In this document: one piece after another, positions 422 through 60,686 of the stretch
Numbering within the stretch: position 1 is the first letter of the stretch
How the letters are laid out: every line of letters starts with the position of its first letter
DNA from: Ktedonobacteria bacterium
GTDB taxonomy: Bacteria; Chloroflexota; Ktedonobacteria; Ktedonobacterales; JACDGC01
Direction of reading: 5' to 3'
Length of the DNA stretch: 64,000 nucleotides
Assembly (NCBI GenBank): GCA_027459525.1
Contig: DAIDIC010000210.1
Location: forward strand, 12,326-76,325
Program-made: the position numbers and the translations under genes
The notes under the pieces: generated by a model
The model's database searches: none
Told to the model about the DNA's origin: nothing
Seen by the model: only the letters and a program-made list of their open reading frames with translations

Positions 422-690
422 AAAAAGAACCTTTCTGCTTATAAACCAGCCCAGTACTCAAAAAAAATTTTTACTTACATATCTGCTACTCACATTGTAT
501 CCCTCACCACATTTATTGTATCTGATCTATATCACATAATATTAATTTTGTGAGTTAACTGAGAGACAGCATGACAAATTCTGCAGGGTCATGTTATAAT
601 ACCTGCAAAATACCCATTTCCGGCAATCGTCTAAGCGGTTGTCTGTTATTTTTATCGGGAAAATTACCCATTTAAATCAGATCAGTATAG

Positions 691-828
691 TAGGACTTTC
701 GCTTGAAAGAACAGCATATGTTTCTCGTATTTGAAGCAGAAGGGGGCTGGGGACACCCCAGAACCGCGTACAAGGGACGACTGCCCCGTATACATCCCTC
801 GATTTTCCCTGCTGAAGCGAAAGTCCTG
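691..828 (+). mobile_element. MITE-like structured repeat, copy 1 (orientation defined here as forward)
   Basis: T-AGGACTTTCGCTT...AAGCGAAAGTCCT-G with a 13-bp terminal inverted repeat. Flanked by a perfect 5-bp direct repeat TATAG (686-690 / 829-833). Its interior is the most diverged of the full copies. Confidence 0.85.
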
Positions 829-856
829 TATAGTATTTATTTATCAAGGAAACATC

Positions 857-9246: not shown

Positions 9247-9519
9247 ATCTACTCCCTGTCTAATTATAAGTTTTTAAAGCAATCGCTATTACCCATTGAA
9301 AGTATTTTTCACTTGTTTTACGGTGAAACAGCCAACAAACGCAAACATCTGTAAATGATTGCCGTTTCTAGAGTATTTTTGCTTTCTCAACACCAGCAAA
9401 TGATTTAACGAAAGATACATTGCTTTGCATAAGATGAATCTTATATTAAGATTGAGTATGCCTGATTTTAAAATATTCGTCAAGATACCTGCCATTTCAA
9501 AAAACCAAAATATCTTTTT

Positions 9520-9657
9520 TAGGACTTTCGCTTGAAAGAGCAGCGCATGGTTTCTCGTATCTGCAACAAAAGGAAATCTGGGGCCACCCCAGAACCCCGT
9601 ACAAGGGGATCCGCCCCTTGTACATCCCCGATTTTCCATGCTGCAGCAAAAGTCCTG
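9520..9657 (+). mobile_element. MITE-like structured repeat, copy 2 (forward)
   Basis: Full-length copy close to the consensus. Flanks TTTTT / TTCTT (4 of 5 identical). Lies between livK and livH, antisense to the operon. Confidence 0.85.
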
Positions 9658-9816
9658 TTCTTATATCTGTGTGGTCTTTGACACGCGCCAAACACGTACC
9701 ACATTCATATATTCATTGAATAATTTACCAATACATTGGTTTTCTTATTGATGCTGACAAAGCAAACGCCACAGCGCAAAAATATATTTCCGCAATTATG
9801 TCGCTGTAGCAAAGCA

Positions 9817-14844: not shown

Positions 14845-15237
14845 ATACCAAACCTCTTTTCGTTAACACTCTTCATCAAACTTCGACCTGCGGATACCTC
14901 TAACTTCAGTTATAGGGAGGAAGCAGATCTTCCTTATATATTTGTCTGTTAAAGTTTTTCTTCCGGTAGTTGTATTCCGGATGTCTTGTATACATACATC
15001 GACAGGTTTACACAAGCCAATACAGCCCAAAAGTCCTTAATATCGCCATCCAAAGGTACTGAGCATAGTTATACAATATATTTGCTGTCACATCCTATAA
15101 AATAGTTCAACAGCTGAATATTGACCGCAAAAAATCTTGTAGACACAAAAAGAATCTGTTACAATACGATCGAGACAGCAGTTTTCCGATTTTGCGGTTC
15201 ACCAAAACCGCTCAACGGAATATCCGGGAGGAAGAAA

Positions 15238-15381
15238 ATGGCGCAGCAGCCTGCTCAAAAACAATTCCATAAAATCAGCGTTTTGGAATACATTTTAATC
15301 GTTGCCATCATCGCCGTATTTTGCGCCGGTGTATTTATTGTTATATATCCATCAATTTCCAACATCATCTCTGTTTTTTAG
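15238..15381 (+). CDS. flp: Flp-family type IVb pilin (47 aa)
   Basis: GGGAGGAAGAAAATG RBS. MAQQPAQKQFHKISVLEYILIVAIIAVFCAG... has the Flp EY + hydrophobic core, but K instead of G at the usual G/XXXXEY cleavage position. Lies directly upstream of the tad genes. Confidence 0.7.
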   Translation: MAQQPAQKQFHKISVLEYILIVAIIAVFCAGVFIVIYPSISNIISVF

Positions 15382-15651
15382 GTCATTGACAAAAACGTAG
15401 CCACTCGCTTGTTCACTGCGCACACATAGCATCCTGCGCCAATAAAGTGAAATCTGGAAACATCCAGGCCTCAATCTCCGCGCAAAGGGCCAACAATGTA
15501 TGCATTTTTGATGCAGTGCAGCAAGCGAGTGTTTTTGTCTGTATATATTGTTTATTTCAATGCAATTCTTTGGATTTAAACCCATAAATATGGAGTTCCG
15601 CACCGTCTCTTCTCAACATTTCCTCATACATCTCCGCCAAAAACATATTTT

Positions 15652-15788
15652 CAGGACTTTCGCTGCAGCATGGAACATCGGGGATGTACAAGGGGCGCCG
15701 CCTCTTGTACGGGGTTCTGGGGTGTCCCCAGACCTTCCTTTGCTGCAGATGCAAGAACCATGCGCTGCTCTTTCAAGCGAATGTCCTA
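15652..15788 (-). mobile_element. MITE-like structured repeat, copy 3 (reverse)
   Basis: Reverse complement of the consensus. Perfect 5-bp direct repeat ATTTT (15647-15651 / 15789-15793). Lies between flp and cpaB. Confidence 0.9.
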
Positions 15789-15874
15789 ATTTTATTGAAA
15801 CAATTTCGGTAAAATGGACTGATTCTTGCTGAATAGCTATTAGTATTTTCATCGTACAGTAAGGAAAACCAAAC

Positions 15875-25038: not shown

Positions 25039-25057
25039 CTATATATATATATCTGAT

Positions 25058-25194
25058 CATGACTTTCGCTGCAGCATGGAACATCGGGGATGTACAAGAG
25101 GCGGCGCCCCTTGTACGGAGTTCTGGGGTGTCCCCGGACCTCCCTTTGTTGCAGATACGAAAACCATACGCTTCTCTTTCAAGCGAAAGTCTTA
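25058..25194 (-). mobile_element. MITE-like structured repeat, copy 4 (reverse)
   Basis: Perfect 5-bp direct repeat CTGAT (25053-25057 / 25195-25199). The termini carry substitutions (ATGAC.../...GTCTT). Confidence 0.9.
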
Positions 25195-25242
25195 CTGATA
25201 TTGAAAGAATCACCGCTTTTCGGTTACAGCGGCAACAAGCCG

Positions 25243-27216
25243 CTATTGTACAGAATGATGAACCATAACCGGCATTTTTACCGTTTCAACTTCAGCGGGA
25301 TATTCATTATTTTTTCGATTATTCTGCGAATGCCGCATATTCAGCAGCGCCATTATGATAGCGGGGCTGATAACCAAAATGTGCCACAACAGCAGCAGCG
25401 ATAACAATACAGTTTCAATACTTACGCTTTGTACCAGCAATATAACTATAGAGACAGCGGCAATTACAGTAAAAACGGTTTCCGGAGCCGCCATTTTTAT
25501 TGCGGAGCCAAACGAAAGTGATGATGTGTATTTCGGTGTCCGTATAAACGGGAGCCGCCGACGATACAATCCGGCAAAAGATGCACGAGAAACCGCCCAA
25601 TTCACGGCAAATAGTCCTATTAAAACCCCTGCCGCTTCTTTCCATGAAACACGCATCACCACCTTAGATGACCATAGAACACGCGCTGCGCCAATAACTG
25701 TTCCTAAAATTGGCGCCAACAACGCCGAGGCAATTAAGGGACGCACCGTTAAGGGAATATGTAAAATGCGCGCCACAATAATGCAATTAAGAAACATACC
25801 CAATGTTATTTGCAAAAATGGATGAAACCAATGCAGCCCATGCATAAGATAATCGTAGCGTTGTTTTGCGTTAAGCCGCGCAAATGCGCCGGCGACTGCC
25901 CCTTGTTTAGGATTTTTATTGCGCAGTTTCCGCCCAAACAGCAGCAGCAAAATATACGCTCGCGTTAGCTGTACGCTGCCATATGCCCAGCGATAATGCT
26001 GTTTTTTCAAATCTGCTAATGTTGCAGGCAATTGCCCGTGTCCATACACAATATCCAAATATCCCCCAACATACCCTTTTGTAAAAATACGCAAACTAGC
26101 TTCGGCGTCTTCAGTTACACTCCATTCCGCCCAGCCGCCGAGGCGCTCTAGCACCCTGCGGCGAATTAATCCCATAGTTCCGCAAAAAATAATAGAATTG
26201 CGTTCCGCGCGGGAATGCATGCCCACCGAGAAAAAATATTTTTCCGCCAAGGCGTTTACATGATGGTAGGTATCGCCCGCGTCATAAGTAAAGGCTTGTG
26301 GGGTTTGTATAAAGGCCATTTCCGGATTTTGCAGAAAAAGCGGCGCAGTTTCTTTCAACCATTGCGGCTGAACAATATAATCGGCGTCTACTATAGCAAT
26401 CAGTTCAGCGTTGGGACTGGTTTGTGTTAGGGCAAAATTCAGCGCGCCCGCCTTATACCCGGGATATTGCTGCAAATGAAATACTTTAATATTATGCTTT
26501 AAACAGAAATCCATTACCGGCCGCCATTTTAACATATCCTGTGTATTATCATCAATGAGAATTATTTCATAGGAAGGATACTCTAACCGAAGAATCGCTT
26601 GTAACGTTTGGATAACCATCTCCGGAGGTTCATCATGCGCCGGCACATGCAGTGAAACCATCGGAAATTGCGCCGCAGCGCTGCTATTTCGCGATGGATA
26701 AAGCCGCATATTCCATTTAGTTCGGCAAAGCACATCAATTAATTCACTGGTATAATACACATCAATAAACGCCGACGCCAGTTCTCCCGCAATAAGGAAA
26801 AAAGCCAGCGTATATCCATACCACTGCGCTGAAGTTGTAACCGAAACATAGAGCGCATATTGCAAAAAACTAAGGGAAAATAAAATAGGCGCGCTAAAGG
26901 CCAAGCAGCCGATGAGGCTCCATTCAGTATGAGTAAAAAAGACACTGATATCTATCAGCTCGGCGGCAAGCGTTGCCAGCAACAAAACAACCAACGGCGC
27001 GCCAACAAGATAACCGATATAAATCGGCGTAACATACGCCGCTGCGGCAAGCAGAACATTTCGCGGACTGGTTCGTTTTATACGTGAAGCTCCTGCCGCG
27101 GCAAGCTCCAGCGTCCGTATCATAAATGTTAGTATGCCCCACCACAAAATTCCCCAAGACGCCGCACTTTTAGCGCTTAAATACCGAACAAAAAGTATGT
27201 GAGGGAGCGCGTTCAT
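25243..27216 (-). CDS. Membrane-embedded family-2 processive glycosyltransferase (cellulose/PNAG synthase-like)
   Basis: IILIDDNT, IVDADY, QTPQAF, VTEDAE and QHYRWAYG (QxxRW) motifs flanked by multiple TM helices. Confidence 0.85.
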   Translation of the reverse strand: MNALPHILFVRYLSAKSAASWGILWWGILTFMIRTLELAAAGASRIKRTSPRNVLLAAAAYVTPIYIGYLVGAPLVVLLLATLAAELIDISVFFTHTEWSLIGCLAFSAPILFSLSFLQYALYVSVTTSAQWYGYTLAFFLIAGELASAFIDVYYTSELIDVLCRTKWNMRLYPSRNSSAAAQFPMVSLHVPAHDEPPEMVIQTLQAILRLEYPSYEIILIDDNTQDMLKWRPVMDFCLKHNIKVFHLQQYPGYKAGALNFALTQTSPNAELIAIVDADYIVQPQWLKETAPLFLQNPEMAFIQTPQAFTYDAGDTYHHVNALAEKYFFSVGMHSRAERNSIIFCGTMGLIRRRVLERLGGWAEWSVTEDAEASLRIFTKGYVGGYLDIVYGHGQLPATLADLKKQHYRWAYGSVQLTRAYILLLLFGRKLRNKNPKQGAVAGAFARLNAKQRYDYLMHGLHWFHPFLQITLGMFLNCIIVARILHIPLTVRPLIASALLAPILGTVIGAARVLWSSKVVMRVSWKEAAGVLIGLFAVNWAVSRASFAGLYRRRLPFIRTPKYTSSLSFGSAIKMAAPETVFTVIAAVSIVILLVQSVSIETVLLSLLLLWHILVISPAIIMALLNMRHSQNNRKNNEYPAEVETVKMPVMVHHSVQ

Positions 27217-27864: not shown

Positions 27865-28066
27865 GATTTATCACGGTCTTTTTATGAAAAACTGCGGATA
27901 ACTGCGCTTGCGACGCAGTTATTGCAAAATAGAAATTGCGCTTATGCAACTTTGCGCAACAAAAATTCTGATTCTATTTTTTGTAATCTGTAATTGTTAC
28001 GTTTTATGGCCATTATAGCAAATATTGGCGTATTAGAAAATGTATTAGCAAAGATGTTTTCTTTTA

Positions 28067-28204
28067 TGGGATTTTCGCTGGAAAGAGAAGCGCATGGTTC
28101 TCGTATCTACAACAAAGGGAGGTGTGGGGGGCATCCCAGAACCCCATACAAGGGGCGGAGACCATTGTACATCCCCGATGTTCCATGCTGCAGCGAAAGT
28201 CCTG
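28067..28204 (+). mobile_element. MITE-like structured repeat, copy 5 (forward)
   Basis: Full length but diverged at the 5' end (GGGATTTTCGCTGG). No recognisable target duplication (TTTTA / TTATT). Confidence 0.8.
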
Positions 28205-28352
28205 TTATTATTGAGATAACCACTATCAACTCGTACTTGCGCTCTGGCCAGCAACCCAGAAAATAGGCAAAGGCAGAATGAGCGCAAATAAACAAGAATA
28301 TATAAATAATTATTTATATATAAAAATATTTACATTTATTCATAAAAATTGC

Positions 28353-35312: not shown

Positions 35313-36512
35313 TCAGTCAAGATATTCTTTCAGACGGCGCATTTTGCTTGGCATGCGCAGTTTACGAAGCGCTTTCGATTCTATTTGGCGAATGCGCTCG
35401 CGGGTAACACGGAATTCGCGGCCAACCTCTTCTAATGTGCGGCCTTTGGTGCCATCTAAGCCAAAGCGCAGTTGCAAAACTTTGCGTTCTCTGTCGGTTA
35501 AAGCGGCCAGCACTTCATCTACCTGTTCGCGAAGAATTTTTTTTGTTGCGGCTTCGGGTGGGGTAAGGGAAGTATGATCTTCCAGAAAATCACTTAAATG
35601 CGAATCATCTTCTTCACCAATGGGGGTTTCCAAACTCACCGGCTCTTGATTCACTTTCACAATTTCACGGACTTTATCAGGGCTGATATTCATTTCCAAG
35701 GCAATTTCTTCAGGAAGAGGTTCACGTCCAAGTTCTTGGGTTAACCGACGAGTGATGCGCATCATTTTATTGATGGTTTCAACCATATGAACGGGAACGC
35801 GAATAGTGCGGGATTGATCGGCAATAGAGCGTGAAATTGCTTGGCGAATCCACCATGTGGCGTATGTGCTGAACTTATAGCCTTTAGTATAATCAAATTT
35901 TTCAACCGCGCGCAGTAAACCGATATTGCCTTCTTGAATAAGATCCAGCAAACTCATGCCTCGGCCAACAAATTTTTTAGCAACGCTGACAACTAGGCGA
36001 AGGTTAGCTTCTGTCAGTCGTTTTTGCGCTTCAATACCGTCATTGATAAGGCGTTTATTACGTTGGGTGTGTGTTTTTTTAATTTCAACCAGTCCTCGTT
36101 GCACACGAATAGCAAACGCAACTTCTTCATCATAAGAAAGCAGGGGAACTTTACCAATTTCGCGCAGATATACCCGCACAGGGTCATCGGCAGAGCATTC
36201 AGACTCTAGGGAAAGCAAGCTGGAGGAATGAGCGATATGGGTATGTACGCCATTAGAGTCATTTGCTTCTTCAGTATTTTCTTCTTCAAAACTCCAAGAG
36301 GCTTCATGCATATCTTCTGTTTCAATATCACCGGCAACGAATTGCTGCGCAATAATCTGAAATTGAGCAGAGGGGTGAGCGCTGTCTGAAAAACCATGAT
36401 CTGAAGATGTATCGGCAAAAATAGGCTCTCGATCGACAAGCTGCTGATCAGCGGTGTTCCACTGAGATGAAAGCGAGCGACGGCTATATTGGCGCATGAA
36501 CAATTCCTCCAA
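35313..36512 (-). CDS. rpoD: Primary RNA polymerase sigma factor (RpoD/SigA)
   Basis: Regions 1.2 to 4 are present: [78 protein letters not shown]. Confidence 0.95.
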
Positions 36513-36633
36513 CGAAACCTGTGTACTGCAACTTAAGTATGCATTATTGAGTTATACAAATCAATCAATAGTACGCAGAAAAAACTGAAAACTACCTTAA
36601 AACTAGCTGGCAGTTTTTTTTGCAGAGCATTTA

Positions 36634-38643
36634 TTACGTTTGAAGCAAAGCTTCATCATCGATACGTTTGCGTTTAGCTAAAAGCGTAAAGCTTTTTTCG
36701 CGCAACGCCTGAACAGAACTGAAATCGTTTTGTTCAGCTGCTTCATGCTGTAATACAGATATTTGGTTGATTGCTTCCGTCAACCTGACTTTTTTAAGTC
36801 GTAACGCCAGTTGCTTGGCTGTCCGTGCCAAAAGAGCGCTATCTTGTGTTTGCTGAACGGTATGCATTGATTTCAACCGCTCATAAACATCGACTAAAAC
36901 AGGTGAAGATTCTATCAACGCTGACGCAGTACTTTCACTATCCTGTCTGCCGCTTGCTTGCAAAATCAGGCTAAATAACGCTCTTGTCTCGGTTCCTTCG
37001 AAGTCATTCACTTCAATTATAACATATATCTCCTGTGCAATAATAGGGTAGTTAATAATCAGGGAAAGGATCTGTTCTTCAAGCGTGTTTCCTAGTCTCA
37101 TCCGCTCCGAAATAGCTCCGGATCTGGGAGATTCTGCCACAGAAGCGTCATCTGTGTCATAGTACTTATTAGCTATGCCATCTGGCGCAGTACTGCTTTG
37201 AGATCGTTTTTGTGCGGCGCCGGCGGCATATTTTCGGCGCAGCCGATTCATTTCATGAATAGCGTCGCGTTCCTGTAACTGCATTTCGCTGGCAACGCGG
37301 CGCACATACATATCGCGTTTTAAAGGATCTGCCATAACCGCAATTGCCTGAAGCAATTCATGGCTGGCTTTCAGGCGTTCGTAAGAATTGCGCAGATCGT
37401 GTGCGCCCATAATATTTTTTATGGCAAATTCAATTAAAGGCATTGCCGCATTCATTTGCTGCTGCCACGCCACAGGATTGGCGCGAATAAATTCATCAGG
37501 ATCTATACCATCCGGCAGCTCCATAATAGTAATCTCAGCGTTTACCTGTTCTTCAAACTGTATAGGGCTTTGTGGCAGCGGTGAATATTTCCCTGCTTTT
37601 TTACCTTTAAACCGCGGCTCTTCAGCTACAGGAGCCAAGTGTTGAGGAACTAACGAACGATCGAAGCCCTCCTGCGCAACTTCGATAGCGCGCAGCGTCG
37701 CCATTTGGCCGGCAGAATCGGGGTCGAGCGCCAAGGTGAGCTTATTGGTTAATTTCTTAATAATTTCCACATGTTTGGCGGTTATGGCGCTGCCAATACA
37801 AGCAACCGTATTACGAAAATGATATTGCTGCGCAATAATTGCGTCGAAATATCCCTCTACAATAACGATTCGGTCTTCTTTGCGCACCGCTTCCCGCGCG
37901 GTGTCTAAGCCATACAGCGTTGCGCTTTTATCAAACAGCGGTGTTTGCGGCGAGTTTAAATATTTAGGCGTTCCGCCGCCCAATTCACGGCCGCCAAACG
38001 CTATTACTCCGCGAGTATCGCGAATGGGAAACATAATACGGCTGCGAAAATATTCTGCCGTAAAACCGGTTTCCTCTTTTATATGCGCTAAACCGGCTTC
38101 AATAATCAACTGGCTGGGAAAACCCTGCTCTTGCAGAAATTGTAGCGCGCCGCCATGTTCCGGCGCATATCCCAAACGAAATTTTATGATTGTTTCGTTT
38201 GTAACTCCCCGAGATTGTAAATATGATCGCGCTTTTGCCGCCGCGTTCGCCGCCAGCAATTGATGATGGTACCACAGCGCCGCCGCTTCATTCACCTCAC
38301 GCAATTTCTGCAAATGTTCGCGCCGCTCTGCAGATCCCGCAGAAAACTCAATATCCGTAAAACCAATTGGAATCCCGGCTTTGTCTGCAAGCTCACTCAG
38401 CGCATCGTGAAATGTCAGAGATTGTGTTTTCATCAAAAAGGTGAATATATCGCCGCCTTCGCCGCAACCAAAGCAGCGCCACGTTCCGGTTTCGGGAAAG
38501 ACATAAAAAGAAGGTGTTTTTTCCCCATGAAACGGGCATAACCCTTTATAGCCTTTTCCGGAGCGCTTTAACTCCACAACCGCCCCTATTTCCTGAACAA
38601 CATCTATTCGGGCCTTAATCTGATCGATAGGGGAATCTGCCAT
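36634..38643 (-). CDS. dnaG: DNA primase
   Basis: Zn ribbon CPFHGEKTPSFYVFPETGTWRCFGCGEGGD, TOPRIM IVIVEGYFDAI. Start at ATG 38643 with GGGAGG 7 nt upstream. Confidence 0.95.
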   Translation of the reverse strand: MADSPIDQIKARIDVVQEIGAVVELKRSGKGYKGLCPFHGEKTPSFYVFPETGTWRCFGCGEGGDIFTFLMKTQSLTFHDALSELADKAGIPIGFTDIEFSAGSAERREHLQKLREVNEAAALWYHHQLLAANAAAKARSYLQSRGVTNETIIKFRLGYAPEHGGALQFLQEQGFPSQLIIEAGLAHIKEETGFTAEYFRSRIMFPIRDTRGVIAFGGRELGGGTPKYLNSPQTPLFDKSATLYGLDTAREAVRKEDRIVIVEGYFDAIIAQQYHFRNTVACIGSAITAKHVEIIKKLTNKLTLALDPDSAGQMATLRAIEVAQEGFDRSLVPQHLAPVAEEPRFKGKKAGKYSPLPQSPIQFEEQVNAEITIMELPDGIDPDEFIRANPVAWQQQMNAAMPLIEFAIKNIMGAHDLRNSYERLKASHELLQAIAVMADPLKRDMYVRRVASEMQLQERDAIHEMNRLRRKYAAGAAQKRSQSSTAPDGIANKYYDTDDASVAESPRSGAISERMRLGNTLEEQILSLIINYPIIAQEIYVIIEVNDFEGTETRALFSLILQASGRQDSESTASALIESSPVLVDVYERLKSMHTVQQTQDSALLARTAKQLALRLKKVRLTEAINQISVLQHEAAEQNDFSSVQALREKSFTLLAKRKRIDDEALLQT

Positions 38644-39022
38644 AGCGCCGCCTCCCAAGTCTCCGGCGGAAATATGCCCGAAATATCAAGGATTCGGTAC
38701 CACCGGCTGATTATATCGATTTGGTTTTTGTGTATGATGTTCTGTAACAGCAGAACTATTCCGCTGCCGCAGATATGTGTTACGTTACGCTTTATTGCGC
38801 TGCGCTTAGTGATATTATTGTACAAATCAGCAGAACATTTCATTTGTATGGGAAATTTGCTGCAATAAAAACTGCGTTACGCCATTTGACGGCGGCCAGA
38901 AATAATAAAACACAATATATTCATTGCCGGCAAAATTATTTTGGTCCCATACCTGCGAATAATTCAATTCATTCCATGATACAATATGCATATGAAACGA
39001 TTGCCTGAAAGGACGCTTTGTA

Positions 39023-40321: not shown

Positions 40322-42109
40322 ATGGGATGGAGTGAACTGATTAACTCTGAACTGGATGGGTATAAAATTATTAAAGAAATAGCCCGCGGAGGCACTTCGC
40401 GGGTATATCTTGGCGTGCATTTACAAACAGGGCAGGAAACTGCAATAAAGGTAATGGCGGTTAATGTAGACGGCGGAGAGCAAAATTCCTTTGTCCGCAG
40501 ATTTGAACAGGAATCTCAAGCAGTGCTGATGCTGAATCATCCCAATATTGTGCAGGTATATTCCGTCGGGAAAAATGATGAATTTGTATATATGATTATG
40601 CAATTGGTCTCCGGCGGCACGCTGCGCGATAAACTCGGCAAGCCGCTGCCGGTTCCTGAAGCCGTATCGCTGATTTCACAAATGGCGCGCGCGCTGCATC
40701 ATGCGCACCAACGCAATATAGTGCACCGTGATGTAAAGCCAGCCAATATGCTGGTAGACGATAAAGACACTTCACATCTTTTACTGGCAGATTTTGGTAT
40801 TGCCAAAATCATCGGCATGCAAGGCATCACCAAAACGGGCACAGCGTTGGGCACGCCGGAATATATGGCGCCGGAGCAGGCCCAAGGCGAAGTTATTGAC
40901 CACCGCGCAGATATTTATGGCTTAGGCTGTGTGCTTTACGAAACGTTGGCCGGCCGCCCGCCTTTTTCTGGGCCTACCGCTTTTTCAACCTGTTATCAAC
41001 ATGTGCATTACCGTCCGCCATATATTCGGGGATTTAACCCGGATGTTTCACGAAAACTTGCGCTGATTATTGAAAAAGCGCTGGCTAAAAATCCCGCAGA
41101 TCGTTTTGCCACTGCCGAGGAGTTTGCCGAAGCGCTATATCCATTTTCGGAAGCGCAGCCGGATAGACATATCCCGCCTGCCCCACCCATTGAAGGCTTA
41201 AATACCGACAGAGATTTTTCCCGCCCGCAGCTGCGGCTGGCGCCAAACCCAGAAATACAGGAACAACAGTCATCTTCTTTTGAGGAGCCAATTTCAGTTG
41301 AAATAAATCCGCCGGTGTTGGATATTTCTATGATTCGCCGAGCCACGATACCGACGCCCACAGCGCACACCGATGACGAAACCACTCGCCAAACCACCGA
41401 GGTAACCCCGGTAGCCACACCATTGCGGCCGCGCCACACCAGACCGATAGAAAAAAATTCTCCGGTTAAAAATCACGCCGTATCTCCGCCGGTTATGCAA
41501 CCGCACACCGAGGCTCCGCGCCACAGCAGCAACGCTTCCGCCGGCTCCGGATCAGATCACCGCGCACAACCGCCGGCGCGCAAGCCCGATAATAAATTGG
41601 GAAAAGCGCTTATTTTCCTTGCGGCTATTTTAGCCCTAGGGTCTATCGCTTTAGCTGTGCCGCATTTTTTAAATAAAAACCAGCCGGCAGCTTTGGCTAC
41701 AGCTACACTGGCGCCTACAGACACAGCCACACTGGCTCCTACAGCCACACTGGCGCCAACGGTAACCGCCGCGCCCGCAACAGCAACCACCGCGCCACAG
41801 GCAGGCGCTATTACAAAAGCGACAGCAAATTCCGTAATAGATCTAAGCTGTTCTATTTCCAAATCCGTTTTTCCGGCGTATTCACAAGTATATATTAACA
41901 TTTGTATAAACTCCGGATATGGCTCGGGAGTCATTTCTGCTGTATATTACCGCAACGGCGCATTTATAATACGTTCATCTTATTCCGGCGCTTCCGCCGG
42001 AGGATATTATCTTTCCGCAGACTCTTCCGTCATGCAGCCGGGATCTTACACCGTAGATGTTCAATGGAATAGTCAAACTGAATATACGTTATTATTTACT
42101 GTTTCATAG
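40322..42109 (+). CDS. Transmembrane Ser/Thr protein kinase (PknB-like, canonical catalytic motifs)
   Basis: GGTSRVY, AIKV, HRDVKPANML, DFGIAK, APEQ. Then a P/T/A-rich linker, one TM helix and an unassigned extracellular domain. Confidence 0.9.
   Translation: MGWSELINSELDGYKIIKEIARGGTSRVYLGVHLQTGQETAIKVMAVNVDGGEQNSFVRRFEQESQAVLMLNHPNIVQVYSVGKNDEFVYMIMQLVSGGTLRDKLGKPLPVPEAVSLISQMARALHHAHQRNIVHRDVKPANMLVDDKDTSHLLLADFGIAKIIGMQGITKTGTALGTPEYMAPEQAQGEVIDHRADIYGLGCVLYETLAGRPPFSGPTAFSTCYQHVHYRPPYIRGFNPDVSRKLALIIEKALAKNPADRFATAEEFAEALYPFSEAQPDRHIPPAPPIEGLNTDRDFSRPQLRLAPNPEIQEQQSSSFEEPISVEINPPVLDISMIRRATIPTPTAHTDDETTRQTTEVTPVATPLRPRHTRPIEKNSPVKNHAVSPPVMQPHTEAPRHSSNASAGSGSDHRAQPPARKPDNKLGKALIFLAAILALGSIALAVPHFLNKNQPAALATATLAPTDTATLAPTATLAPTVTAAPATATTAPQAGAITKATANSVIDLSCSISKSVFPAYSQVYINICINSGYGSGVISAVYYRNGAFIIRSSYSGASAGGYYLSADSSVMQPGSYTVDVQWNSQTEYTLLFTVS
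41702..41761 (+). repeat. Three 18-nt tandem units inside the kinase gene (ATLAPT linker)
   Basis: GCTACACTGGCGCCTACA, a 6-nt spacer, then GCCACACTGGCTCCTACA and GCCACACTGGCGCCAACG. Confidence 0.6.
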
Positions 42110-42225
42110 CAATTTTGGTTATCTTCTGCCATAATAGTATATAAAGTCTTGACGATTGCGCAGACCTATGATAGCCTACTTACTAAGATGCGCTGTCTTG
42201 GTTGTATGGCTTAATATATAATTAT

Positions 42226-42300
42226 AGGACTTTCGCTTGTTACCTTATTTGGAAATTTGCAAGGCTCTCCTTGCGCAGGATTTGGGGTATCCCTCCCAAA
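42226..42300 (+). repeat. Degenerate or rearranged relative of the MITE-like element
   Basis: Starts with an exact T-AGGACTTTCGCTTG terminus. Contains a GCAAGG-CTCT-CCTTGC hairpin and TTTGGG-GTATCCCT-CCCAAA. No matching right terminus was found. Confidence 0.35.
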
Positions 42301-42391
42301 TGCTCTCATCGGCGCAGTATGTAAGACAACCTTGAATGGTTCCGGCGGAAAACTAGCGTCAAAAAGATATTTCATACAATAAAGGGTCAAT

Positions 42392-42589
42392 ATGACAGAA
42401 AAAGAACTGCTTCAAACGCAAATGCGCAGTTTTCAGTTTTACGCTGATTTAATTGAACGCGCAACACGCACAACCGGCGATGAACTGCCGCGCTGGAATA
42501 TCGAAAAAGCCAGAAAGTTTCGAGAATTGGCGGAGCAATATAAATTGCGGCTGCAAGAAATTGAACAAAAAGAGCGGCAAGCGTCTTAA
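42392..42589 (+). CDS. Small coiled-coil protein (65 aa), hypothetical
   Basis: ORF with AAAGGG upstream. Charged helical sequence. First gene of the 42.4-45.4 kb cluster. Confidence 0.45.
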   Translation: MTEKELLQTQMRSFQFYADLIERATRTTGDELPRWNIEKARKFRELAEQYKLRLQEIEQKERQAS

Positions 42590-55861: not shown

Positions 55862-55911
55862 GAATATCTCCTGTTTTTTACACTATTTATTTGCCAAAAA
55901 TCATTTACCTG

Positions 55912-56048
55912 TAGGACTTTTGCTTGAAAGAGCAGCGCATGGTTCTCGTATCTGCAACAAAGGGAGGTCTGGGGACACCCCAGAACCCCGTACAAGGGGC
56001 ATTGTCCCTTGTATATCCCCGATGTTCCATGCTGAAGCGAAAGTCCTG
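55912..56048 (+). mobile_element. MITE-like structured repeat, copy 6 (forward; closest to consensus)
   Basis: Full-length. Flanks ACCTG / ACATG (4 of 5 identical). Lies in the divergent region between the ADH and Pnkp-like genes. Confidence 0.9.
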
Positions 56049-56312
56049 ACATGGCAATTGGATGGATCATCCAAAACAATATTATAAAAAATTTTAAAGA
56101 AATGGTGATAGATCCAAAATATATTAGTTATTTCTCATGCAATTACATACTACACAAAATATATACCACCGCAGAAAATTGCGCCGGTTAAAAGATATCT
56201 GCTATACTGCAAAGAGACAGAAAAATTAATATGCTGGTGTCCGGCTTAGGCACGCAAAATATAATGAAAGGCCGGCGAACTGCGAAAGCATGCGCCGTAA
56301 ATAATCTGAAAA

Positions 56313-60408: not shown

Positions 60409-60562
60409 AGAAAATAAATACCCATCTTTGGGGAAATAAAAGAAACCTAAACGGCCCCAACGCCGTATATACCATATTAGGTGAACTATAACACAGTATA
60501 TGAGCAAAATTTTACCATATCTTTAAGAAATTTTCAATAGCAGAAAAAAACTTTTGAATATT

Positions 60563-60633
60563 CAGGACTTTCGTTTCAGTAGAAAATTTGGGGGTATACA
60601 AGGGCGCGGCGCCTCTTGCAAGCGAAAGTCCTA
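60563..60633 (-). mobile_element. MITE-like repeat, copy 7: internally deleted (about 69 nt core), reverse orientation
   Basis: Both termini (AGGACTTTCG... / ...AAGCGAAAGTCCT) and the apical hairpin are kept, and about 65 nt are missing. Flanks ATATT / ATATA (4 of 5 identical). Confidence 0.8.
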
Positions 60634-60686
60634 ATATATTAAATATATCGCCGAGCGGTTGAATAAGCGCTGAAGCGCTGCGGAAA

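Follow-up and report, generated by a model that had tools for sequence, protein, structure and literature searches.

One repeat is commoner than any other in the 64-kb stretch of DNA analyzed here (hereafter, the window), and it raises the question of whether its copies truly transposed and, if so, which kind of machinery moved them. The window is ordinary chromosome (it encodes dnaG, rpoD, murG, an EF-G paralogue, a Tad pilus cluster, ABC transporters, and a tRNA-Val) from a species represented by no more than a few MAGs and metagenome assemblies. An RpoD search that reached 185,579 GTDB species representatives yielded distant relatives only, with identities of at most 72% for RpoD over its conserved part and about 33% for DnaG (the two genes lie at window positions 35313–38658). 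A preliminary description of the locus had proposed, from the 5 nt on either side of seven copies, that the repeat spread by true transposition through a 5-bp staggered cut and not by a REP/RAYT-type route, and it had named empty sites in relatives, as well as transposase families with 5-bp duplications and related ends, as the comparisons to make. We report both comparisons here. The repeat is a 137-bp non-coding MITE with ends and 5-bp duplications as in ISAba11-like ISs of the IS701 family, i.e., a genuine but ordinary mobile element of an uncultured bacterium. As far as sequence can tell, it was very probably mobilized in trans by an ISAba11-like IS701-family DDE transposase.

Copies and Boundaries of the Repeat Family

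Six full-length copies of 137–138 nt each, a 71-nt form and a decayed remnant lie in the window, which amounts to seven copies and one remnant in 64 kb (~1 copy per 9 kb); all coordinates and flanking sequences previously given for the copies proved right on rechecking. The first copy (c1; 138 nt, 691–828, plus strand, 85% identity to the family consensus) lies 29 nt upstream of the start codon (857) of a MoxR-like ATPase gene and is framed by identical TATAG 5-mers at 686–690 and 829–833. Copy c2 (138 nt, 9520–9657, plus strand, 93% identity) has a branched-chain amino-acid ABC substrate-binding gene on one side and a permease gene on the other, with flanks TTTTT (9515–9519) and TTCTT (9658–9662). 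Two minus-strand copies carry perfect duplications: c3 (137 nt, 15652–15788, 95% identity), upstream of the Tad/Flp pilus gene cluster, has ATTTT on the plus strand at both 15647–15651 and 15789–15793, and c4 (137 nt, 25058–25194, 94% identity), with a Ser/Thr kinase gene and a glycosyltransferase gene to either side, has CTGAT on the plus strand at both 25053–25057 and 25195–25199. The ends of c5 (138 nt, 28067–28204, plus strand, 90% identity) are the most decayed among the copies (its left end is TGGGAT), and its flanks TTTTA (28062–28066) and TTATT (28205–28209), described earlier as showing no match, in fact agree at three of five positions. Copy c6 (137 nt, 55912–56048, plus strand, 95% identity) has as neighbors an alcohol dehydrogenase gene and a polynucleotide kinase-phosphatase gene that diverge from each other, and is flanked by ACCTG (55907–55911) and ACATG (56049–56053). 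The 71-nt form (c7; 60563–60633, minus strand) has suffered an internal deletion with both ends intact, and its flanks are ATATT (60558–60562) and ATATA (60634–60638).

The decayed remnant (42225–42335) consists of an exact 15-nt terminus, TAGGACTTTCGCTTG, followed by ~95 nt weakly similar to the reverse-complemented consensus, within which a second end is not recognizable; it lies upstream of a small ORF (42393–42589). Separately, imperfect 18/24-nt tandem repeats (CTACAGCYACACTGGCGCC-like) occupy 41697–41780, in the C-terminal part of a Ser/Thr protein kinase gene (40322–42109).

At least two further copies exist elsewhere in the genome. One, the eighth of our set, comes from a different contig of this species (L088, 10030–10166; flanks ACAAT and ACTAT), and the left half of another lies on contig L087 (positions 1–217; ERZ27237304). 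When the latter is compared with window positions 15180–15788, the right flank of c3 (100% identical) is seen joined to an unrelated left flank, and the left half of the copy at this junction is like another family member. The junction is either an assembly chimera or the product of recombination between two copies, and it implies at least one extra MITE copy in the genome.

In all eight copies (seven in the window plus that of L088), the bounds of the family are 5'-T AGGACTTTCGCT...AGCGAAAGTCCT G-3'. The terminal T before AGGAC and the G after GTCCT, previously reported for the seven window copies, thus hold for every one of them and also for the L088 copy. At the TIRs, TAGGACTTTCGCT and the reverse complement CAGGACTTTCGCT pair at 12 of 13 positions, with an imperfect extension to ~30 nt. 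Every copy lies outside genes; several occupy divergent promoter regions or gaps within operons, several are just 5' of start codons, and both orientations relative to adjacent genes occur. Neither the alignment of the copies nor their six-frame translations suggest any coding capacity; when the peptides of all six frames were searched against 5.8 billion proteins, two read-through ORFs and nothing else came back.

Flank Agreement Is Specific to One Register

Read in the orientation of the element, the flanking 5-mers of c1–c4 are TATAG/TATAG, TTTTT/TTCTT, AAAAT/AAAAT, and ATCAG/ATCAG, and those of c5–c7 are TTTTA/TTATT, ACCTG/ACATG, and TATAT/AATAT. With the T...G bounds, the flanks of the eight copies agree at 34 of 40 positions (five of five in three copies, four of five in four, and three of five in one). 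Shifts of the boundary by 1–4 nt on either side give an agreement of 7–29 of 40. Position by position, the two 5-mers agree in 7, 8, 4, 8, and 7 of the 8 copies, and the positions directly outside agree in 1/8 and 2/8. Among 14,833 derangements that re-paired left and right flanks, agreement reached a maximum of 26, with a mean of 15. Under a null of AT-rich 5-mer pairs with the same spacing in the window, the probability of at least three perfect pairs among eight is 4e-6, which bears out the earlier judgment that three perfect 5-mers exceed chance, and the probability that at least seven of the eight agree at four or more of five positions is 1e-9. The invariant T and G sit between the duplication and the inverted repeat, and are therefore part of the element.

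These features are those of prokaryotic MITEs: the family has less than ~500 bp of non-coding sequence, TIRs, a duplication of fixed length, and dispersed, mostly intergenic copies. Among MITE-like elements, Correia and RUP elements make TA duplications and belong with transposases of other families. Likeness to known prokaryotic MITEs extends from small size, lack of coding sequence and TIRs to duplications that decay with age, AT-rich intergenic sites, and a strongly folding transcript (PMC10969869, PMC6382973). MITEAba12 differs in its 9-bp duplications (PMC6382973), as against 5 bp in the window MITE.

The flank statistics also bear on a different reading, in which recombination or a REP/RAYT-like single-strand mechanism spread a structured palindromic repeat and the flank matches arose by chance in AT-rich DNA. 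The element is strongly palindromic, and homology links its central 55 nt to a REP-like repeat that occurs in tandem clusters in a sister species and has no MITE ends. However, the register-specific agreement is far above chance; the flanks vary between copies, with no fixed tetranucleotide or pentanucleotide target as in IS200/IS605-type elements; and no Y1 transposase was found among the window ORFs scanned. The MITE shares with REPs and BIMEs the character of GC-rich palindromic intergenic hairpins, and its core resembles the clustered repeat of the sister species. Yet REPs measure 20–40 bp, do not duplicate their target, and go together with a RAYT gene (PMC3733652, PMC2817692), whereas the MITE has 137 nt, 12–13-bp inverted termini, variable 5-bp duplications, and an empty site (see below), a combination that does not fit a REP/RAYT assignment.

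Orthologous Sites with and without the Element

Five other assemblies or assembly sets of the same species (GCA_027399355.1, GCA_021812265.1, two ENA assemblies, and one Logan run), all ~99.8% identical, were compared at orthologous sites located by exact-protein look-ups. No empty site was found among the orthologous sites covered in these approximately five assemblies, and each copy checked was present: c1 recurs in all other same-species assemblies covering its site, and c7 is found in contig L155 too. Contigs of the other assemblies often break within MITE copies; at c4, short-read contigs L001 and L002 both terminate within the copy.

A sister species (~84% nucleotide identity) was reached via 90%-identity protein clusters. 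The filled site on L088 reads GCTCTTT ATAGT, then the element, then ATTGT ATTATTTGC; its sister-species orthologue, without the element, reads GCTC-TT ATCGT ATTACTTGC. In other words, the sister species carries one ATCGT where L088 carries ATAGT and ATTGT around the MITE, which is the kind of empty site that the preliminary description had hoped for. The best colinear alignment of the two sites removes the element plus one 5-mer (score 59, vs. 54 if both or neither 5-mer is kept). This empty site fixes the exact boundaries of the element and the 5-bp length of its duplication, and it does so independently of the flank statistics.

Clean empty sites were not obtained at c2, c3, and c5, where the intergenic DNA of the sister species is too diverged or rearranged. 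At the c4 site (window 25048–25259 vs. L173 17131–17319), the sister species bears a different insert of ~135 nt. Its local alignment to the MITE, in opposite orientation, scores 35, which is marginal against a shuffle maximum of 33; the insert could be an older relative of the MITE or reflect independent use of the same target.

The single 5-mer at the empty site and the permutation tests together effectively refute spread by recombination or a REP/RAYT-like mechanism, and we give that reading almost no credence. True transposition with a 5-bp staggered cut, as originally proposed, is instead upheld by the flank statistics, by the empty site, and by a matching transposase family, to which we now turn.

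Ends Shared with ISAba11-Like Elements of the IS701 Family

A metagenome search with a pattern spanning both MITE ends (YAGGACTTTCGCTKSARMRWG) returned 57 stretches, about as many as estimated for chance. In 11 of the 57, an exact partner end, GCGAAAGTCCT, lies ~1.05 kb off, and the paired ends bound elements of 1,057–1,064 bp with the form [T/C]AGGACTTTCGCTTGA...AGCGAAAGTCCT[A/G], each filled by one ORF of 332–335 aa. The two ORFs that were tested score 365–368 bits on the NCBIfam model NF049921 "IS701 family transposase" (cut-off 250), and both match Pfam DDE_Tnp_1 and DDE_5. The 21 nt of these metagenomic IS ends that match the search pattern were selected for and are no independent evidence; such evidence comes from the partner ends and from the ISs retrieved by protein similarity. 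Two viral-contig matches to the end pattern came without a partner end and were taken as chance. Many of the metagenomic full-length IS copies have no matching flanks, which we assume to reflect chimeric short-read assembly across multi-copy ISs.

As a check free of this selection bias, finished plasmids were searched by tblastn with one metagenomic transposase, and four kinds of IS were retrieved. Three of them, i.e., ISAba11 (1,101 bp), a Spirosoma linguale IS (1,049 bp), and ISPlag1 (1,306 bp), match NF049921 with 389–408 bits and have the termini TAGGACTTACGC or CAGGACTTACGC, which conform to the motif YAGGACTT(A/T)CGC. The fourth, a more distant Piscirickettsia IS outside the NF049921 scoring, has the terminus CACGAGTTTCGC. 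Perfect 5-bp duplications stand directly outside the terminal base in six of the seven scorable complete insertions in these plasmids (CATAT, ACTCT, TAAAA, and TATAT for the first three kinds; CTGGA and GAGGT for the Piscirickettsia IS). The terminal 12 nt of the MITE agree at 12/12 positions with the metagenomic ISs and at 11/12 with ISAba11, the Spirosoma IS, and ISPlag1. ISAba11-like IS701 elements are thus the family that the preliminary description had suggested looking for, with 5-bp duplications in the same register and 11–12 of 12 terminal nucleotides in common.

ISAba11 is an IS701-family element (PMC9771954), and its insertion gives "a characteristic 5-bp direct repeat" (PMC7885321). 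The IS701 family as first defined makes 4-bp duplications, and related emerging families make duplications of ~5 bp (PMC2266710); duplications of 5 bp characterize the ISAba11-like clade. Specifically, ISAba11 and the MITE have the termini TAGGACTTACGC and TAGGACTTTCGC, respectively (11/12), duplicate 5 bp in the same register, and use AT-rich targets (PMC7885321). They differ in that ISAba11 is autonomous, with 1,101 bp and a 342-aa transposase, whereas the MITE has 137 bp, is non-coding, and contains an unrelated, highly structured core; at the right terminus, the MITE has ...CCTG and ISAba11 ...CCTA. Among autonomous relatives, the terminal bases are mostly T...A, with C...G in L114 and ISPlag1 and C...A in L097. 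The "non-complementary" T...G ends of the MITE are explained by this variation, because its relatives carry T or C (Y) at the 5' end of each strand. Judging from these matches, a clade of small (~1.05–1.3 kb) IS701-family ISs, ISAba11 and ISPlag1 among them, has the 12–13-bp TIRs of the MITE, YAGGACTTTCGCT, as its recognition ends.

Deletion derivatives also occur in this IS clade, namely a 385-bp form (L093 4220–4604, the same as in L096) and a 116-bp MITE (L130 3766–3881), the latter flanked by the perfect duplication TTTAA/TTTAA. They are independent miniaturizations within the clade, from other metagenomes.

A 5-bp target duplication is not unique to one IS family, and the repeat might accordingly be a MITE of another such family (Tn3-derived, the IS2 group of IS3, IS1380, or IS21) with coincidental ISAba11-like ends; no transposase of any kind was found beside the copies, and internal similarity to IS701-clade elements is not significant. 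We nevertheless consider this very unlikely. The agreements of 11/12 (with ISAba11, the Spirosoma IS, and ISPlag1) and 12/12 (with the metagenomic ISs) are anchored at the tip and share the duplication register, and anchored agreement of 11/12 by chance has a probability of ~1e-6. Nor do the MITE ends bear the hallmarks of the other families: Tn3 elements have 38-bp repeats led by GGGG, IS3 and IS21 elements have TG...CA ends, and IS1380 has CC. Tn3-derived miniature elements (TIMEs and IMUs), like the window MITE, are non-autonomous and make a 5-bp duplication, but their Tn3-type repeats of ~38 bp start with GGGG, whereas the MITE ends have 12–13 bp and match the IS701 clade.

We return to mobilization by an ISAba11-like transposase, which probably proceeded as follows. 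A DDE transposase of the clade, acting in trans, would bind both YAGGACTTTCGC ends and cleave exactly at the T and the G; the element would then be joined to an AT-rich intergenic target at two positions with a 5-bp stagger; and repair of the two 5-nt gaps would yield the 5-bp direct duplication. Cut-and-paste chemistry would be expected for the copies from the relationship between IS4 and IS701. The 64-kb window and ~25 kb of further same-species sequence (~90 kb in total) contain no transposase gene, cognate or otherwise, that we could find; mobilization in this host is therefore something that we infer.

Origin of the MITE by internal deletion from a particular parent IS is not supported, given that similarity to the metagenomic ISs beyond the terminal repeats is not significant: MITE positions 22–45 and −50 to −13 align to seven ISs no better than shuffles do. 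The MITE consensus has no match in plasmid or phage collections, and the core pattern CACCCCAGAACNNCGTACAAG has zero matches in the GTDB species representatives and zero in JGI metagenomes. The family appears to be confined to this lineage. Its burst is old and its copies are now decaying, as they are 84–96% identical to the consensus, several of their ends are mutated, and all covered orthologous sites in the same species are filled.

Fold and Possible Origin of the Palindromic Core

The consensus folds as a whole-element hairpin (−69.4 kcal/mol, z = −8.7; other strand −69.1 kcal/mol, z = −6.2). So stable an RNA fold would suit an element selected by the host in cis, e.g., as a regulatory 5'-UTR structure or an mRNA stabilizer, with mobility secondary. 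The intergenic position of all copies, several of them just 5' of start codons or between operon genes, would fit such a role, as would the position of c1 between a promoter-like site (571–600, 11/12) and the MoxR start codon. That site resembles a strong sigma-70 promoter (ATGACA-18-TGnTATAAT). Behind it comes a terminator-like hairpin with a T-run, both of them within 571–643, just upstream of c1 and the MoxR operon; if the promoter is used, c1 would lie in the 5' UTR. However, compensatory changes were found in 0 of 43 predicted pairs across the eight copies, and the substitutions break pairs, which points to neutral decay and not to a selected RNA. The copies also stand in both orientations relative to neighboring genes. 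In Rfam 15, only the tRNA-Val reaches the gathering score in the window, with nothing better than E = 0.46 on the element, and promoter and terminator scans gave no consistent signal within it. We hold host selection to be highly improbable; the simplest account of the fold is that it follows from the inverted repeats and the palindromic core.

The central 55 nt of the MITE (consensus positions ~57–112, the two-hairpin core) are 80–88% identical to, and homologous with, a repeat of 70–90 nt in the sister species. This REP-like repeat forms tandem clusters without AGGACTTTCGC ends (L170 13885–14208; L173 5956–6099, 7561–7613, and 20096–20165). In the window, the core occurs within MITE copies only. 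We hypothesize, from this homology, that the MITE may have originated through the placement of IS ends on either side of a palindromic (REP-like) repeat of the host.

Two of the copies differ in the direction of their central hairpin (GTACAAG..CTTGTAC): reverse complementation of the c4 hairpin (25092–25116) gives exactly the c3 hairpin (15686–15710), while the overall orientations of the two copies are equal. This suggests an in-situ inversion of the hairpin or, otherwise, three coincident substitutions.

Central-Base Mismatches in the Duplications

Four of the six mismatches in the duplications of MITE copies fall on the central base (9517/9660, 28064/28207, 55909/56051, and L088 10027/10169). 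In a full-length IS in L099, the single duplication mismatch is also central, and the empty site of the sister species shows a third base in this position (ATCGT, vs. ATAGT and ATTGT). With the two off-center mismatches of ISPlag1 counted, five of nine are central (binomial P ~0.02); in recent plasmid insertions, all duplications are perfect.

This clustering is probably due to chance. We think it very unlikely that ISAba11-like transposases leave a signature at the target dyad, whether by preferring a distorted or mismatched central pair or through error-prone repair of the central gap. MuA, which makes 5-bp duplications, centers strand transfer in vitro on a mismatched base pair (PMC5357137). 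By our own estimate, mismatches occur in nature far too seldom to account for half of all insertions. If a preference for central mismatches were true, the two copies of a duplication would record both strands of a heteroduplex.

Implications

With these data, the identity of the commonest repeat in this region of the genome is settled, and its exact boundaries can be used for annotation. The MITE copies explain the fragmented short-read assemblies of this uncultured lineage. For the ISAba11-like clade, a conserved end motif, YAGGACTT(A/T)CGC, is now defined together with a 5-bp duplication. Current understanding of MITEs is not overturned. Mobilization by such a transposase would widen the range of this clade of the IS701 family, mainly known from resistance plasmids of Acinetobacter, to include MITE formation in an uncultured bacterium of a deep-branching lineage, and the family may offer a case of a MITE core taken from a host REP-like repeat.
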